DNA of 40,933 nt. It comes from a virus. Taxonomy: Duplodnaviria; Heunggongvirae; Uroviricota; Caudoviricetes. Positions 1,782 to 34,230 of the stretch are shown piece by piece (position 1 is the stretch's first letter; each line of letters begins with the position of its first letter). The notes under the pieces were generated by a model, which did no database searches, was not told the origin of the DNA, and saw nothing but the letters and a program-made list of their open reading frames with translations. The position numbers were made by a program, and so were the translations under genes. The DNA is taken from positions 1-40,933 of IMG/VR virus record IMGVR_UViG_2563366852_000006. One strand, written 5' to 3'.

Positions 1782-3035
1782 ATGAAAGTTGAAATGAATA
1801 CTAAACTTTTGGCCTATTTAAACAATGAGTTACATGGAGTGTGGGTAGATAGTGAAAATCGTAATATCCACATAATACTTAAATCAAGCCTTCCTATAAT
1901 TAAATCCGTCTGGTCAGGAGCACCTATCCACTTTTTGGTAGGTTTATCTACTAAAAATATACTAGTGATTGGGATGTTGATTGAAGATAATGTCGATAAT
2001 CCATTTTTACTAGCCTATCCACCAAGAGAGGCAGATGAAATTAAAGGGCTGGATTTGTTATTGTCAGGCGCTTATGATGGTATTCTATTATCATTTTTTG
2101 ACTCGCATACAATGCGTGTTATGGACCTGAAAATAAAAGTTTCGGAAAATTTACCGTGTGAATGTTTAAAAAAATTTTGTGCTAATTCATATTCTCTCAA
2201 TTCAGGATTTAGGGAAGGTAATGAAGCAATGGATGAATTCTGCAACAATGCTTTGACTGGTAACGAGAAAATAATTAGTCTGCCACTAAGTGTAATCGAT
2301 AAAAAATCTTACCTAGCAAGTGTTCATGAACCAAACGATACCGTATTAACATATGAATTTAGCGTCAGTGAAAACGGCTCTGAGGGATATGAGCAGGAAG
2401 CTCTTATATACCATGCTTTGCGGCAGGTCTTTTCAACGGAGGAAGTGTTTTTTTCTCCAGATATTATTGAGGGTAATAAAAAAAGAGAACTAGTTGATAT
2501 TCTTATTGTAGAAAATGACTATGTATTATCTATACAGTCTAAAGCATCATCTTTGATTGAAATGGGTTTGAAATCTCATGAAAAGCTTTGTAGCATGTAT
2601 AAGAAAAAAGCATTGCAAGGGATCGATCAGGTTAAAGGCGTTATCCCAATTCTAAATAATGATGTGGTTATTAATTATGACGGGAGGGAATGCTTAATAA
2701 AGCGCAGAAAGGGTATTTATCATTTAGTGATAATCTCAGATCTTGTTTTAGAGAAAGAAGGTGCTGAAAAGATTTATAACGAAATTAGCAACCTTAAAGA
2801 GTCAAAAGGGGCGAAAGTTTTAGTTATGAGCCTTGAAGGTCTTGTAAATTTTATAAGACTATCAAGATTAAATAAAAGAATGTTTTGGGCAATGCTGGAG
2901 GCTAAATACAAGTTCAGCATAAAAAACCGTACAATTTTAATTAGAGATATCGACTCTAGCCAAGAGAATAATCTACCATTACTTGCCACTGATCAATACC
3001 TATCACTTCTTCGAGGTACGGGAAAATTAAAATAA
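1782..3035 (+). CDS. Hypothetical protein, AT-rich cargo gene between integrase and the early operon terminator
   Basis: 417 aa uninterrupted ORF, visibly AT-rich compared with flanking phage genes. RBS AAGGA lies just before the 1782 ATG; an alternative ATG is at 1794. No family recognised by eye; a possible E...PD...QxK-like stretch (EQEAL...SPDIIEG...VLSIQSK) is unverified. Confidence 0.6.
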   Translation: MKVEMNTKLLAYLNNELHGVWVDSENRNIHIILKSSLPIIKSVWSGAPIHFLVGLSTKNILVIGMLIEDNVDNPFLLAYPPREADEIKGLDLLLSGAYDGILLSFFDSHTMRVMDLKIKVSENLPCECLKKFCANSYSLNSGFREGNEAMDEFCNNALTGNEKIISLPLSVIDKKSYLASVHEPNDTVLTYEFSVSENGSEGYEQEALIYHALRQVFSTEEVFFSPDIIEGNKKRELVDILIVENDYVLSIQSKASSLIEMGLKSHEKLCSMYKKKALQGIDQVKGVIPILNNDVVINYDGRECLIKRRKGIYHLVIISDLVLEKEGAEKIYNEISNLKESKGAKVLVMSLEGLVNFIRLSRLNKRMFWAMLEAKYKFSIKNRTILIRDIDSSQENNLPLLATDQYLSLLRGTGKLK

Positions 3036-17932: not shown

Positions 17933-18182
17933 TAGCGATAATTTTACTCATCATCCTTCACATCTGGCTCTGTAGACAGGGTGGTGCTTACTTCTGGAGC
18001 GAATCCAGATTAAACATCTCATTGCTGATGCTTGATATTGAGCATCTGGCGCGCGGTAAGGGCTGTGTTGAGATAAGTGCCAGTTCATTACAAAGCTATA
18101 TCTAATGGAACCTGAAATAATTTGTCATTGTCATGACAAGAAAATTCATTAATGATGAGCTCTCATTATACGGGAGGTAGAT

Positions 18183-18431
18183 ATGGCATTTCGTTATTTT
18201 GAACTTACCGAAAATATTCCTTTTGAGGATGCAAGAGAGCTTCACGTACAGTTCAAACACCACTTAGAATATGTTGTAAAGGCGTTATTTATGCCAGGAA
18301 CACATGAAAAGCATTTAATTGTTGAAGGCCGGGATGACGAATCGATAACACAGATATTTGGTGGGCATGATGAAAAGTTTATGCATCTTTATCATATCGA
18401 TGAATATGAAAAACGTGAAGACTTAATCTAA
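18183..18431 (+). CDS. Hypothetical small acidic protein
   Basis: 82 aa, AT-rich, GGGAGG RBS 6 nt upstream; Asp/Glu/His-rich. Confidence 0.45.
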   Translation: MAFRYFELTENIPFEDARELHVQFKHHLEYVVKALFMPGTHEKHLIVEGRDDESITQIFGGHDEKFMHLYHIDEYEKREDLI

Positions 18432-18546
18432 CCTCCTACGACTGTTTTTATTGCCATCATAAAAGCCATTCCTTGCAGAGTGGCTTTGATAATGGATATC
18501 CCAACAAGCGGATAAGACAATAAATATACCCACCAGGGGATAAACA

Positions 18547-18792
18547 ATGTCTAAAATCACGGTTACACCTGCATAGCAGATCCGCTTAAACCTGCTGGCG
18601 AAACTGTACTATGACACCGCCGCTGCAGCAGACGCGATTAAGTTTGTTGGTGACGATCCGTTGAAGTATCAAATCTTTGTGAACCAGTTAAGCTGGGTAA
18701 CATCTGAAAGCGGGCTGGTAGCCAGAACGACGAAAGCTATCAAAGAGTCGGAAGACACACTACTGTGGTTTGAAGCTGAATCTGGTTCATAA
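18547..18792 (+). pseudogene. Small ORF interrupted by one in-frame TAG at codon 10
   Basis: ATG at 18547 after an AGGGGA RBS; TAG at 18574-18576; the same frame then stays open for 71 more codons to TAA at 18790-18792. Confidence 0.4.
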
Positions 18793-18840
18793 GTGAATGA
18801 ATGTGGTAATTTAATCCTCCGCAAAAAAAAGGGGATAAAA

Positions 18841-19062
18841 ATGCCAAAGAATGTCATAGCTATTTTACCGGGTGACGCGTTTGATCATGTTGTTGTCCAG
18901 GACGACCTGGAGATTGTTACCTTCAGGGGTGACAAGGGCGGCGTGCTTACTATGCCTATCGAGGAGTACGAACTAGACGGGATAAGTTATAACGTCGCAC
19001 GTTGTGACGGTATGGTCACTGACGAAAAAGTTGAGAAGGCTATCAGACACTTCACCAAGTAA
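18841..19062 (+). CDS. Hypothetical small acidic protein
   Basis: Start chosen at MPKNVIAIL after AAAGGGGATAAAA; followed by a terminator. Confidence 0.4.
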   Translation: MPKNVIAILPGDAFDHVVVQDDLEIVTFRGDKGGVLTMPIEEYELDGISYNVARCDGMVTDEKVEKAIRHFTK

Positions 19063-19080
19063 TAATCAGCTTCCGAACCA

Positions 19081-19104
19081 AGCCTCGCAATAGCGAGGCT
19101 TTTT
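19081..19104 (+). terminator. Rho-independent terminator
   Basis: AAGCCTCGC-AATAG-CGAGGCTT followed by TTTT. Confidence 0.6.
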
Positions 19105-19116
19105 AACGACAGAGGT

Positions 19117-19311
19117 ATGACAGTGGTTCTTACAGCTAAGCAGTTTGAAGACCTTGCATCCTTCGCGAAGGAAGATAGCCAGCCTCAATACACCATCGCA
19201 ACCGGAATAATCCCAGAATTCGAAGATGATTGTGAGTTTATCCCCGTTTATGCCGGGCTCATCGCTTATTTAGAGTTACTGAATCACGGTGTATTGCAAC
19301 TCGACCACTAG
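19117..19311 (+). CDS. Hypothetical small acidic protein
   Basis: 64 aa ORF, D/E-rich; weak translation signals. Confidence 0.3.
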   Translation: MTVVLTAKQFEDLASFAKEDSQPQYTIATGIIPEFEDDCEFIPVYAGLIAYLELLNHGVLQLDH

Positions 19312-19385
19312 CGACATTACGCCAAGTATTCATCAAGTGCCTAGTTTAATGTTAAATTATTCCCTCATTCATAAAAGGGAATGTT

Positions 19386-19787
19386 ATGAAAATAGATCAC
19401 GAGTATTTGAAAGGTCTTTTGGAAGCTTTCGAGGCGTCTGAAGAGCCGCATACTGATATAAAGCAGCTGCAGCTGGCTGGGTATGACTACAGCACCGATG
19501 AATTTTTATTCCATATGCGTTTATTGGCTGATCGTCAACTAATTGCTAGAACAGACGGCAAGTATGGGTTTGGTTTCTCTGAGGCTGCTGATGGAGGATC
19601 ATGGTTCGTTATACCGTTACGATTAACTTCAAGCGGTCATGACTTCCTTGAAGCTCTCAGGAATAAAGAGGTTTGGAATTCTCTCAAGACCGGCTTTAAA
19701 GATGCAAGCATTGGAACATTAGTTGACGTTTCAAGGCGTTTGCTGGATGGTTATATTCAGAAAAAAATTGACGACTTAATTGGCTAA
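19386..19787 (+). CDS. Hypothetical protein, possibly DUF2513-like winged-helix
   Basis: 133 aa; N-terminus MKIDHEYLKGLLEAFE resembles DUF2513 proteins from memory; followed by a strong terminator. Confidence 0.45.
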   Translation: MKIDHEYLKGLLEAFEASEEPHTDIKQLQLAGYDYSTDEFLFHMRLLADRQLIARTDGKYGFGFSEAADGGSWFVIPLRLTSSGHDFLEALRNKEVWNSLKTGFKDASIGTLVDVSRRLLDGYIQKKIDDLIG

Positions 19788-19813
19788 TATTTTATATAAC
19801 CATCAGCCCCGCA

Positions 19814-30261: not shown

Positions 30262-30353
30262 ACCCCCTTGAACTTCGCCGGACGGCTATTTCCCACTTTG
30301 CTGATCTGGAGGCAGAGGCCGTCCGTATAAATGAGGAGATGAAGCATGGCTGA
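30189..30353 (+). other. Putative programmed -1 frameshift site (T TTT TTT) and extension frame of the tail chaperone
   Basis: Heptamer at 30189-30195 in the chaperone frame; the -1 frame stays open for 53 codons to TGA at 30351-30353, overlapping the tape-measure start. Confidence 0.45.
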
Positions 30354-32247
30354 TAATTTTCAGCTGAAAGCCATCATCACCGCCGTTGACAGGCTATCCG
30401 GCCCGCTTAAAGGTATGCAGCGTCAGCTTAAGGGGTTTCAGAAAGAAGTCTCCAGCCTTGCTCTGGGCGCTGCCGGGGCGGGTACTGCAATAATGGGGGC
30501 ACTGGCACTCCCTGTAAAATCAGCCATCACCCTTGAATCGAAGATGGCTGATGTCCGCAAAGTGGTGGACGGTCTGGATACGCCGGATGCGTTTAAGGCC
30601 ATGACGGAGCAGGTACGCGCTTTGTCTACTGAGCTTCCCATGTCTGCAGACGGGATCGCGGAAATTGTGGCGGCTGGCGGTCAGGCCGGGATTGCACGTG
30701 ATGAACTGATGCAGTTTGCCACTGATGCGGTGAAGATGGGCGTGGCCTTTGATACCACGGCTGAAGAGTCCGGGCAGATGATGGCCCAGTGGCGTACTGC
30801 GTTTAATATGACGCAGGATGAAGTGGCCGGGCTGGCTGACAAAATCAACTACCTTGGTAATACCGGCCCGGCGAATGCGAAGAAAATCTCCGATATTGTT
30901 ACGCGTATTGGTCCTTTAGGTGGTGTTGCAGGTGTGGCTTCCGGCGAAATCGCGGCAATGGGGGCAACCATTGCCGGGATGGGCGTGGAGTCAGAAATTG
31001 CCGCCACAGGGATCAAGAACTTCATGCTTTCCCTGACCGCGGGAAATTCCGCGACAAAATCGCAGAAACAGGCATTACGTTTTCTGCGGATCAATCCGAA
31101 GAAATTAGCTGCTGATATGCAGAAAGATGCCCGGGGAACCATGCTGTCTGTACTGGATGCGATGGCTAAAGTGCCTAAAGAAAAACAGGCAGCTGTGCTG
31201 AATGCCCTGTTCGGGAAAGAGTCTCTGGGCGCGATAGCACCTCTGCTGACTAACCTTGATTTGTTGCGTACCAACTTCAGGCGGGTTGCGGATTCCCAGC
31301 AGTATGGCAGTTCGATGCAGAAGGAATATGCTTCGAGGGCAGCGACGACGGAAAACCAGCTTTTACTTCTGCAAAATCAACTTGATGCAATTTCTTCCAC
31401 TCTGGGGGAAACGTTTCTTCCTGAGGTTAATGATGGTCTTGAAGCGGTAAAACCGCTCCTTGAGGAAGTGAGAACGTTTGTCCGTGAAAACCCGGAGCTC
31501 GTTAAGACCATTGCTAAAATCGGTCTGGCTTTACTGACAGTGGGGGCCGCTGCAGGCTCTTTGTCCAGAATCATGAAAGTTCTCGGCGGTGTGATGAATA
31601 TGACGCCTGCTAAGGGGCTGATTGCTCTTCTGGTTGGTGGCGCTTACCTCATTATTGATAATTGGGAAACCGTAGGTCCTGTCATAAAAAAAGTCTGGCA
31701 CGTGGTGGATGAAACGGCGCAGGTGATGGGGGGATGGGAAACTGTTCTGAAAGCGATTGCCCTGTTTATGGCAACCAAATGGGTTGCTGACGTTACCAAA
31801 TCTATTACCGCAGTGACCAGAGAGATGCGTACGCTGGGGAAGGTATCGGCAGAAACGGGATTGATGGGGAAAGGCCGCGGCTTTATCGGGAAGGCCGGGG
31901 TATATGATTTTCTGGGAACCCTGATGTATGAGCCGGTTAAAGATACTCTGGAAAGTGTTGTTCCTGAAGATACGGTTAACTGGCTGGATAATAAAGGGCT
32001 GTTTCTGGCTTCAGACTGGACGCCTTTTTTTGATCGTAAAGAGTACGAGCAGTATCAGGCCAACCTGAGTCAGTACAAACCCAATGTTCCGCTGTTGAAT
32101 CCATCTTCTTCCATGACACAGCACAGCGAGCTGAAAGTCACGTTCGAGAATGCTCCGCCAAGTATGAAGATAATTGATGTACCGGGCAAAGCCGATCCCC
32201 TGATGAAAATCACGCACGATGTGGGGTATTCTCCATTCAGACGATAA
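30346..32247 (+). CDS. Tail tape measure protein
   Basis: 633 aa, Ala/Gly-rich and helical, with C-terminal hydrophobic segments; canonical position. Confidence 0.85.
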   Translation: MADNFQLKAIITAVDRLSGPLKGMQRQLKGFQKEVSSLALGAAGAGTAIMGALALPVKSAITLESKMADVRKVVDGLDTPDAFKAMTEQVRALSTELPMSADGIAEIVAAGGQAGIARDELMQFATDAVKMGVAFDTTAEESGQMMAQWRTAFNMTQDEVAGLADKINYLGNTGPANAKKISDIVTRIGPLGGVAGVASGEIAAMGATIAGMGVESEIAATGIKNFMLSLTAGNSATKSQKQALRFLRINPKKLAADMQKDARGTMLSVLDAMAKVPKEKQAAVLNALFGKESLGAIAPLLTNLDLLRTNFRRVADSQQYGSSMQKEYASRAATTENQLLLLQNQLDAISSTLGETFLPEVNDGLEAVKPLLEEVRTFVRENPELVKTIAKIGLALLTVGAAAGSLSRIMKVLGGVMNMTPAKGLIALLVGGAYLIIDNWETVGPVIKKVWHVVDETAQVMGGWETVLKAIALFMATKWVADVTKSITAVTREMRTLGKVSAETGLMGKGRGFIGKAGVYDFLGTLMYEPVKDTLESVVPEDTVNWLDNKGLFLASDWTPFFDRKEYEQYQANLSQYKPNVPLLNPSSSMTQHSELKVTFENAPPSMKIIDVPGKADPLMKITHDVGYSPFRR

Positions 32248-32311
32248 TATAACTACTTTAATCAAGTAGGATTATTGAGTGGTAAAGCTTGTGCTGAAAG
32301 TAGGAGAGAAT

Positions 32312-32800
32312 ATGAAGAAAATGTTTATATTGTTGTTGGCTGTAGGACTGCCATTAAACTCCTTTGCGAAGCCAGTAACGGAAAAGCAGCTTGCTACATA
32401 CTTTATAGATAACGTTAAAACTTCAGCGGATAAGAATATAGATCTAGATGTAGAGGGAATAAATAGACTGTCTGTAATATGCCCAGCAAAGTCGGCAAGT
32501 GGAACTCTTTTAATAAAAAAAGCATCCTACGAGTTTAATAAAAGCATTGGTGCTTTTGATTTTGAAAATAACTCACAATCTGCACCATTGACTTTTATTG
32601 TACCAATTAGTGAGGATGAAAATAACTTTGACTCGGAAATTATTGGTTTCTCTTTTGCATTTAAAATGCCAAGAGGGCAATTCTTTGTTGATGTTACGAA
32701 AACAGGGAAGGTAAAGGCTGGCGTAAATATTAGTGGTGAAAGCGAAATTACTTATTCATCATGTAGAATAGATACTCATAATATTGATTATGCTCGTTAA
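32312..32800 (+). CDS. Secreted or lipoprotein-like cargo protein inside the tail module
   Basis: AT-rich; signal peptide MKKMFILLLAVGLPLNSFA; own terminator downstream; inserted between tape-measure and DNA-circularisation genes. Start chosen at MKKMF (32312). Confidence 0.6.
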   Translation: MKKMFILLLAVGLPLNSFAKPVTEKQLATYFIDNVKTSADKNIDLDVEGINRLSVICPAKSASGTLLIKKASYEFNKSIGAFDFENNSQSAPLTFIVPISEDENNFDSEIIGFSFAFKMPRGQFFVDVTKTGKVKAGVNISGESEITYSSCRIDTHNIDYAR

Positions 32801-32815
32801 TTTTATTACCTAATA

Positions 32816-32845
32816 AAAAAACGCGTTTACACGCGGTTTTTATTT
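32816..32845 (+). terminator. Rho-independent terminator after the cargo gene
   Basis: CGCGT-TTAC-ACGCG stem-loop followed by GTTTTTATTT. Confidence 0.55.
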
Positions 32846-32856
32846 GAGGTGACGCC

Positions 32857-34230
32857 ATGGATTTTTCTCATATTTCTTCGTACCTATCCTCTGATTCTCG
32901 AAGTGGCTGGCGTGAAAAGCTACTTGAAGCATCATTTCGAGGTGTGCCGTTTAAGGTTGAAGAAGAAAGTGCGGGAACCGGTCGCCGTGTGGAAACACAT
33001 GAATACCCGAACCGCGACAAGCCCTATACCGAAGATCTGGGAAAAGTCACTTTCCGCCCGTCCATCACAGCTTATGTGGTGGGAGATGACTGCTTTGACC
33101 AGCGCGATCGCCTGATTGAAGCGCTGAATAAACCCGGTCCCGGCACGCTTGTCCACCCGACATATGGTGAGCTGAAAGTCTGTGTTGACGGGGAAGTTCG
33201 GGTCAGCACATCGAAAAGTGAAGGGCGTATTGTCCGCTTTGACCTGAAGTTTGTCGAAGCAGGAGAACTCTCTTACCCCACATCAGGTGCGGCGACGGCG
33301 CAGACGCTGATGTCATCCTGTTCTGCACTGGATGACTGCATCAGTGACAGCTTCAGCGGTTTCAGTATCGATGGTGTGGCGGATTTCGTGCAGAACGACG
33401 TTATCGGTAATGCCAGCATAATGCTGGGGTATGTTTCTGATGCGATGAAAGTGGTGGATTCTGCCGTATCGGATGCCGCCAGGCTGTTGCAGGGGGATAT
33501 CTCGGTACTTCTGCCGCCGCCATCGTCAGGCAAAAATTTCGTTGAGCAGGTGCAGAAAATGTGGCGTACCGGGAAACGCCTTTATGGTAACGCCAGCGAC
33601 CTGGTCACCATGATCAAAACGCTTTCCGGTGTCAGCCTCGGCAGCGATCTGCAACCGCGCGGCGTCTGGAAAACGGACAGTAAAACCACCGCCACGGCGA
33701 CGCAGCAGCGTAACGTGGTTGCCAGCACCCTTCGTACGACCGCAATCAGCGAAGCGGCGTATACCGTCACCCGATTGCCTGCGCCAACAACTTCCGCGGT
33801 GATGCAGAATTCCGCAGTGGGGCAGGCAACAACACCCGCGCAGAGCACTGGCTGGCCTTCCGTCACGCATCCGGCACTGAACAATGCACCGGCGGTGAAA
33901 AACACGGTTGACCTGCCGACGTGGGAAGAACTGACTGACATTCGCGACACACTGAATACGGCAATTGATAAGGAGTTGTCCCGTACAACCAGCGATGCGC
34001 TGTTTCTGGCGCTGCGCCGGGTGAAAGCAGATCTGAATGCGGATATCAACACGCGCCTTGAACAGTCTGCACGGATCATTCAGCGCACACCGGATGAGGT
34101 TTTACCCGCGCTGGTGCTGGCGGCGACCTGGTTTGATAACGCGGCGCGTGACGCGGACATTATCCGGCGTAATGCCATTACGCATCCCGGCTTTGTGCCG
34201 GTGATCCCTCTGAAGGTGCCAGTGCAATGA
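32857..34230 (+). CDS. DNA circularisation protein (Mu N-like)
   Basis: N-terminal pattern EASFRGVPF ... GRRVETHEYPNRDKPYTEDLG typical of the family. Confidence 0.8.
   Translation: MDFSHISSYLSSDSRSGWREKLLEASFRGVPFKVEEESAGTGRRVETHEYPNRDKPYTEDLGKVTFRPSITAYVVGDDCFDQRDRLIEALNKPGPGTLVHPTYGELKVCVDGEVRVSTSKSEGRIVRFDLKFVEAGELSYPTSGAATAQTLMSSCSALDDCISDSFSGFSIDGVADFVQNDVIGNASIMLGYVSDAMKVVDSAVSDAARLLQGDISVLLPPPSSGKNFVEQVQKMWRTGKRLYGNASDLVTMIKTLSGVSLGSDLQPRGVWKTDSKTTATATQQRNVVASTLRTTAISEAAYTVTRLPAPTTSAVMQNSAVGQATTPAQSTGWPSVTHPALNNAPAVKNTVDLPTWEELTDIRDTLNTAIDKELSRTTSDALFLALRRVKADLNADINTRLEQSARIIQRTPDEVLPALVLAATWFDNAARDADIIRRNAITHPGFVPVIPLKVPVQ

Follow-up and report, generated by a model that had tools for sequence, protein, structure and literature searches.

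An optional moron-type cassette at the tape-measure/gpN junction of SfV-like prophages encodes a predicted exported beta-barrel protein

By the definition of Juhala and Hendrix, as restated in PMC3594210, a moron is extra DNA of deviant composition that has its own terminator and promoter and is expressed from the prophage. HK97 gp15 is a moron of this kind that acts in superinfection exclusion (Juhala et al. 2000; Cumby et al. 2012, both as reported in PMC3594210). It is a YebO-family protein, small and located in the inner membrane; its gene lies upstream of the tape-measure gene, its promoter and its expression from the prophage are documented, and the exclusion that it confers depends on the tail of the incoming phage.

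Exported envelope proteins are also encoded by optional genes in or near the tail region of other phages, namely Lom and Bor of lambda, Cor of phi80, N15 and HK022, and Llp of T5. At the host surface these proteins serve adhesion, confer serum resistance or block receptors. Lom belongs to the Ail/OmpX family of outer-membrane barrels; the other three are lipoproteins. A last group to be considered, on account of its fold, is that of the periplasmic peptidoglycan-hydrolase inhibitors MliC, PliC and PhiA (PF09864; PDB 3oe3, 4mir, 7dpy and 2f09).

The DNA analysed here (the window: 40,933 nucleotides, the whole of IMG/VR record IMGVR_UViG_2563366852_000006) is an SfV/SfIV-group prophage that combines a lambdoid early region and head with a contractile tail of the Mu type. 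Its tail operon contains one small gene, hereafter the cargo gene. The cargo gene and that of gp15 are alike in being single small genes of foreign GC content in a tail operon beside the tape-measure gene, in being missing from close relatives, and in having products bound for the cell envelope, the latter being a prediction in the case of the cargo protein. The cargo gene differs from that of gp15 in that it lies downstream of the tape-measure gene and has no detectable promoter, and its product differs in being a predicted soluble exported beta-barrel without sequence relation to gp15. With Lom, Bor, Cor and Llp the cargo protein has in common its predicted export to the envelope and its optional tail-region gene.

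An optional gene inside a Mu-type tail operon

The coordinates of the cargo gene and of its neighbours are given in Table 1. The gene has a GC content of 34.2% (GC3 0.26), below that of the tape-measure gene (51.5%) and that of gpN (55.4%). A first-pass annotation made from the sequence alone had reported an AT-rich ORF at the tape-measure/DNA-circulation junction of a Mu-type tail operon, and this was confirmed by the composition of the gene and by the Pfam domains of its two flanks. The upstream neighbour is also annotated as a tape-measure gene in vB_EcoM-720R4, in SfIV and by RefSeq. In DNA of 34% GC, where stops make up about 7% of random codons, the chance probability of an open frame of 163 codons is about 4e-6. 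No overlapping ORF of 40 aa or more was found on the opposite strand of the gene, and no Rfam family matched the locus. Some gene callers place the start at a GTG at 32279 (173 aa). This start was rejected because the relatives all start at the equivalent of MKK; it was further disfavoured by the better ribosome-binding site of the ATG.

Table 1. Positions of the cassette and its neighbours in the window, and loci of the other tail-located alleles.
Feature	Position or locus	Strand	Details
Tape-measure gene, upstream neighbour	30346-32247	+	633 aa; PF10145, E 2e-42
AT-rich spacer, 64 bp, 5' of the cargo gene	32248-32311	+	contains the ribosome-binding site
Ribosome-binding site AGGAG of the cargo gene	32302-32306	+	5 nt before ATG; strong
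Cargo gene ORF	32312-32800	+	162 codons plus TAA stop (32798-32800)
Signal peptide, 19 codons, MKKMFILLLAVGLPLNSFA	32312-32368	+	rule-based analysis; predicted signal peptidase I cut after SFA
Mature cargo protein, 143 aa, 15.8 kDa, pI 5.2	32369-32800	+	range includes the TAA stop
Seven-A run inside the cargo gene	32515-32521	+	sequence
Cassette terminator: A-tract, hairpin CGCGT/ACGCG (32822-32835), T-tract	32814-32845	+	fold and shuffles
gpN, Mu gpN-type DNA-circulation/baseplate hub gene, downstream neighbour	32857-34230	+	457 aa; PF07157, E 1e-33
Allele P0007	L004, L006, L007		49% identity to the window protein
Allele P0012	L014		47% identity to the window protein
Allele P0013	L017		41% identity to the window protein
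Allele P0015	L016		34% identity to the window protein

Comparison with related phages and prophages revealed that the gene is not always present. Phage vB_EcoM-720R4 matched positions 31200-34200 of the window at 99.4%, the cargo ORF being annotated there as hypothetical. SfIV matched both flanks at 98.5% yet lacked the cargo gene, which was also absent from SfV, SfI and SfII. The gap between the tape-measure gene and gpN measures 24 bp in SfIV and 45 bp in SfV, versus 609 bp in the window. A related gpN was detected in 1094 of 5426 complete E. coli genomes, or roughly one in five, and the insert was carried by 100 of these 1094 (101 by a search with the insert only), leaving about 990 without it. 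Empty-site prophages with the same tape-measure allele were frequent among the latter, and appeared as two-piece matches in which the span on the record was 576 bp shorter than the query. The gene had been considered from the start as cargo, a view to which conservation in all related tails would have been contrary; it was instead missing from the four Sf phages and from about 90% of the E. coli prophages with the same tail. These results indicate that the cargo gene is an optional, compositionally foreign cargo and not a part of the tail.

In the alignment of the window with SfIV, the difference spans from the last tape-measure codons to about 60 nt into gpN, and a search for direct or inverted repeats flanking the cargo block found none. 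Both observations suggest that the block was exchanged by recombination and not by transposition. Transposition or site-specific insertion is made unlikely by the lack of flanking repeats.

Several other regions of the window stood out. A 417-aa ORF at 1782-3035 (+), without a Pfam match, occupies an island of 33-35% GC directly after the integrase gene (386-1609; PF00589). It looks like a second cargo gene, at that end of the prophage which bears the attachment site and where SfV-like phages have their serotype-converting or defence genes. In the early region, an isrK Hfq-binding sRNA (Rfam, 60 bits) is followed immediately by a C4 antisense RNA (80 bits) at 9227-9415 (+); this pair is the P1/P7-type antisense immunity and antirepressor control module. 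Two opposite-strand ORFs of 194 aa and 340 aa, with no Pfam match above threshold, form an island of about 31% GC at 14792-16406 (-), between the DUF968 gene/late-regulator region and the lysis genes. SfIV has a described 'moron' (orf47-49) at the equivalent position (PMC3851460), and the island is a candidate defence or cargo island. Lastly, a DUF2513 ORF (E 2e-13) at 19386-19787 (+) lies in a stretch of 38-44% GC (18000-19800) between the lysis and terminase genes, which is another small accessory region.

A predicted exported protein of an uncharacterised family

The cargo protein matched PHROG 5586 end to end (residues 1-160 of 161; E 2.6e-84). It is a member of this family, which has no functional assignment, so that membership is uninformative as to its role. 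When 1.84 billion representative proteins were searched exhaustively with a profile, only 16 relatives were returned. Scans of the cargo protein against Pfam, NCBIfam and PADLOC gave nothing significant: the one hit, to a pectate-lyase model (E 0.086), was taken for noise, and none of the defence models of PADLOC-DB 2.0 matched at E of 10 or better. A Pfam scan of 12 aligned relatives gave no match at E of 5-10 or better. In particular, the Lom/Ail (PF06316) and Bor (PF06291) models matched neither the cargo protein nor the 12 family members. The comparison with lambda lom and bor, drawn in the first-pass annotation, thus holds by analogy only, since no kinship by sequence could be detected in Pfam. 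When a genome collection was scanned with a 4-sequence alignment, only the Shigella/E. coli allele P0007 and three weak Firmicutes matches (25-28% identity over 80 residues) were recovered, the latter being regarded as spurious. A literature search returned no paper on the cargo protein or its accessions. Exactly two cysteines are conserved in the mature part of 8 out of 8 full-length members, Cys57 (in a 'CP' motif) and Cys151, and closer members share the motif FKMPxGQFFVD; together with the signal peptide, these features are kept down to about 40-50% identity. The product of the cargo gene is a predicted moron-encoded envelope protein of an uncharacterised family, and as such an ordinary type of phage add-on.

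The N-terminus of the protein, MKKMFILLLAVGLPLNSFA followed by KPV, was analysed by rule-based criteria. The two lysines of MKK precede a hydrophobic core, MFILLLAVGL (Kyte-Doolittle 3.0). This is followed by S-F-A, which occupies positions -3 to -1 relative to the predicted cut, and beyond the cut by K. An equivalent xA-K or xA-G cleavage site was aligned in all 8 full-length relatives, in agreement with the signal peptide proposed initially. Residues 1-56 contain no cysteine and hence no lipobox of the form [LVI][ASTVI][GAS]C; among the alleles, a possible lipobox (LTSC) was seen in P0007 only. The lack of a cysteine in the signal peptide points to a substrate of signal peptidase I and not to a lipoprotein, so that the likeness to lipoproteins suggested earlier did not hold. 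The mature protein has a GRAVY of -0.25 and lacks a second hydrophobic segment. An outer-membrane barrel of the Lom type was rejected, as the strands are short and polar, the C-terminus is non-aromatic and a disulfide is likely.

With the 12-sequence alignment as input, AlphaFold produced a model with a pLDDT of 85.1 and a pTM of 0.78, which supersedes a model obtained with 3 sequences (pLDDT 42). The model contains one helix (residues 24-41) and then eight beta-strands, the signal-peptide region (residues 1-20; pLDDT 55-58) being modelled as disordered. The two conserved cysteines are located in strand 1 (Cys57) and strand 8 (Cys151), and a disulfide between them probably closes the barrel. 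The cargo protein is best described as a soluble periplasmic barrel. It would be exported via Sec and cleaved by signal peptidase I after SFA, and the mature eight-stranded protein would fold in the periplasm and remain soluble. Foldseek searches against PDB and BFVD gave nothing below E 0.001, the structural neighbours being generic, and the best match in a profile search of PDB sequences was not below E 0.16. Among the fold neighbours were lysozyme inhibitors (PliC, MliC and PhiA), an immunity protein of type VI secretion and ligand binders of the lipocalin or avidin type.

These neighbours would fit a host-fitness or virulence factor acting by lysogenic conversion, with the barrel binding a ligand or inhibiting some protein in the periplasm. 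The lysogen might in this way be shielded from host lysozyme, from colicins or from effectors of type VI secretion, or the ligand might be a small lipophilic molecule. E. coli MliC, when the sequences are read side by side, has a disulfide between its first and last strands (YQC..., ...NNCQ), where one is predicted here, and the carrier genomes listed include isolates from humans, poultry and livestock, both of which would suit such a role. However, informal inspection of the same genomes revealed no source or pathotype that stands out. Homology to MliC itself was rejected: no family member matched PF09864, hhalign against E. coli MliC gave a probability of 1.9% with only the signal peptide aligned, and the MliC motifs SxSGAxY and YxxxTKG are not found at equivalent positions. 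A SASG string is present four residues after Cys57, unlike its position in MliC, and is not conserved in the remote alleles described below. Judged by sequence or by lipobox, the cargo protein is outside the Lom, Bor, Cor, Llp, gp15 and MliC/PliC families. We consider a role in host fitness unlikely, though it deserves to be kept in view.

Alleles, terminators and transcription

Five alleles of the cargo gene, with pairwise protein identities of 34-51%, were found, all of them at the tape-measure/gpN junction of Mu-type tail clusters (Table 1). The other tail-located alleles are also AT-rich relative to their flanks (37-41% versus 47-57% GC). The identities between cargo proteins track those between the core tail proteins (52-88%) and are always lower. 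The gene therefore looks like a long-term, often-lost resident of the junction and not like a recent arrival, and the recent one-off insertion that could be read from the first-pass annotation is not borne out. A function in host fitness would leave this strict linkage to the tape-measure junction unexplained. Three remote alleles (P0018, P0020 and P0022; 27-29% identity) were located outside tail clusters, as stand-alone units in the maintenance/lysogeny regions of phage-plasmid-like contigs (L011, L012 and L013). Their neighbours include genes for an IncFII RepA, ParA, a CI-type repressor and the toxin-antitoxin pairs Gp49/HTH and MazEF.

A constant position in five divergent tail modules might be expected of a structural or assembly component of the tail. 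Against such a function, the gene is absent from SfIV even though the tape-measure gene and gpN are 98.5% identical there, and it is equally dispensed with in SfV, SfI, SfII and most related prophages. Moreover, tails assemble in the cytoplasm, whereas a cleavable signal peptide would direct the product to the periplasm, which argues that it cannot be a tail part assembled in the cytoplasm. The occurrence of relatives in both tail and phage-plasmid maintenance settings leads to the same conclusion, and we regard a tail component as extremely improbable.

In Shigella flexneri SFBU1023 (L006, from about 6560 onward), the gpN located 3' of the cargo homologue is apparently cut after about 15 codons, by an element that we take to be an IS1-like inverted-repeat end. 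The cut in gpN indicates that this prophage is defective; its cargo gene and terminator are intact.

The terminator of the cassette, CGCGT-TTAC-ACGCG followed by a T-run (32822-32845), has an extended fold of -13.4 kcal/mol (z = -3.7), and none of 200 shuffled sequences folded equally well. The gene thus has a terminator of its own, as had been noticed at first reading, and its shape is that of the bidirectional form. Terminators were present after 4 of the 5 tail-located alleles (those of the window, L006, L014 and L017), the others being unrelated in sequence to that of the window: GCCGCCA...TGGCGG then seven T in L006, and CCCGCTTCGGCGGG then seven T in both L014 and L017. The fifth, allele P0015 of L016 (5984-6471), is separated from its neighbours by gaps of 16 and 17 bp and has no terminator. 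In this lineage the cargo gene is fully absorbed into the late operon. Among the phage-plasmid contigs, L011 and L012 have a terminator both before and after the gene, while L013 is cut upstream at the contig end and has a hairpin without a T-run downstream. L011 (about 690-735) and L012 (about 2870-2915) also share an AT-rich element, TTATTT(T)AAATAAATATTTAAT, which separates a terminator-like hairpin from the gene, just upstream of the latter, and which may serve the stand-alone gene as a conserved promoter or operator.

We also searched for a promoter, which the first-pass annotation had proposed to look for just upstream of the gene (32248-32311). A consensus scan of the spacer detected no + strand sigma-70 site at 9 of 12 matches. 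Over the 200 nt that precede the cargo gene the best PWM score was 7.7, compared with a shuffle median of 7.4 and a 95th percentile of 10.3, and best scores were likewise close to the shuffle median upstream of all five tail-located alleles and of two phage-plasmid alleles; both scans address sigma-70 only, so that weak or non-sigma-70 promoters may escape them. Within this scope, no promoter above shuffle level was found, here or upstream of the other scanned alleles. Of the four moron features that can be tested in sequence, the cassette displays three, namely extra DNA, deviant composition and a terminator.

Because the cargo gene points in the direction of the late operon and is not preceded by a terminator, it must be transcribed together with the late tail genes. 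During late transcription, the cassette terminator would be passed with the help of a Q-type antiterminator; a gene for an antitermination protein is annotated by RefSeq in the related prophage L005. It is conceivable, from this arrangement, that the product is made only with the tail genes, as a late periplasmic factor of the lytic cycle that acts during or after lysis. Such a factor might mask receptors or the envelope so that progeny are not wasted on debris, like Llp of T5, or adjust envelope breakdown. The position inside the late operon in the same orientation and the undetected promoter are in line with this, as is the L016 allele, for which co-transcription with the tail genes is the only possibility, and the stability of the position in the tail module over a long divergence. 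However, the unrelated terminators kept after 4 of the 5 tail-located alleles are most easily explained by transcription that starts nearby and is unmodified by the antiterminator, the phage-plasmid alleles stand alone beside maintenance and repressor genes and not beside late genes, and about 90% of related phages do without the gene. A late factor is for these reasons improbable in our view, if by no means negligible. Indirectly, the retention of the terminators hints that, in lysogens, transcription free of antitermination may start near the cargo gene.

Divergence of the gene and its proposed role

We compared substitution rates among five near-identical E. coli copies (window, L001, L005, L020 and L021). 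In this small sample, in which pairs are not independent, pN/pS was 0.73 for the cargo gene, 0.10 for the tape-measure gene, 0.11 for gpN and 0.06 for gpP. Synonymous divergence was about 0.025 for the cargo, tape-measure and gpN genes and 0.070 for gpP. This result shows a sharp contrast in constraint, which is compatible with diversifying selection or relaxation alike.

A high pN/pS would be expected if the gene were a decaying passenger, a hitch-hiker of long standing whose present function is small or nil, and so would the loss of the gene from most related prophages and the existence in databases of internally deleted or frameshifted variants (P0002-P0004 and P0006). One of these, P0006 (MPSKVGKWNSFNKKASYEF...), is the exact reading obtained after loss of one A from the seven-A run of the cargo gene (Table 1). 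This truncated form was present on 21 contigs, including one complete genome, and the six-A variant could reflect either simple decay or slippage-based on/off switching. On the other hand, the window and each of the four other close copies compared retain an intact frame, despite the 7% stop frequency per codon, and RefSeq annotates a protein at the cargo site in the 30 carrier genomes listed. The conservation of the signal peptide, of both cysteines and of the FKMPxGQFFVD motif in distant members, the confident AlphaFold fold derived from co-variation in only 12 sequences, and the retained terminators also speak against decay, which we consider quite unlikely.

The tape-measure protein of the window is 71% identical to that of L006, the divergence being concentrated after about residue 470. 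Identity is nearly 90% over the N-terminal 470 residues, whereas the C-terminal 160 residues or so (window 31750-32247 versus L006 5390-5927) are almost unalignable. This hypervariable segment directly abuts the cargo gene, and the C-terminal third of the protein differs markedly between tail lineages with different cargo alleles.

We propose that the locus is a moron-type cassette, made up of a ribosome-binding site, a gene and a terminator, that is optionally carried at the tape-measure/gpN junction of SfV-like tails. The barrel would bind something that becomes accessible in the periplasm while a phage infects: the tail tip or the tape-measure C-terminus of an incoming phage with this type of tail, for example, or else a receptor or an entry factor. 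Our best guess as to the function of this periplasmic binding protein of the envelope is that it acts as an exclusion factor. The whole statement, that of a moron cassette whose exported barrel is an envelope binding protein most likely serving superinfection exclusion, is a tentative one, to which we give slightly less than an even chance. Several observations favour exclusion. The C-terminus of the tape-measure protein, which enters the periplasm first, is the hypervariable segment encoded directly upstream; the fold class is one used by periplasmic protein inhibitors; and quick amino-acid change is expected at an interface of conflict. In addition, according to PMC3594210, HK97 gp15, whose gene adjoins the tape-measure gene, blocks injection in a tail-dependent manner.

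A more specific proposal, speculative and on the whole unlikely, is that the family represents a new class of periplasmic superinfection-exclusion proteins, each genetically tied to the type of tail that it recognises. The barrel made by the lysogen would then capture the tape-measure C-terminus or the tail tip of an SfV-like phage and stop channel formation, and it would co-diversify with the adjoining hypervariable C-terminus. This would explain together the presence of five alleles at one junction, the extent of the exchanged block (from the tape-measure end, across the cargo gene, to the first part of gpN) and a pN/pS that is sevenfold higher in the cargo gene.

SfV-like tails occur in about one in five complete E. 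coli genomes, and about one in ten of those prophages encode the cargo protein. As it stands, the cargo gene is a typical moron and an incremental addition to this group; it is also a small single-gene target with a confident fold and is easily testable. To our knowledge, the exclusion proteins known so far are membrane proteins or lipoproteins. If the cargo protein blocks entry from the periplasm, a soluble periplasmic mechanism would be added to the short list of exclusion proteins, and exclusion of this type would bear on attempts to predict the host range of phages in E. coli and Shigella. If, on the other hand, its effect is to protect from enzymes of the host or of competitors, the cargo protein would be a lysogenic-conversion factor. 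The positional linkage across divergent alleles and the contrast in evolutionary rate make the cargo gene a good and cheap candidate for a new exclusion mechanism.
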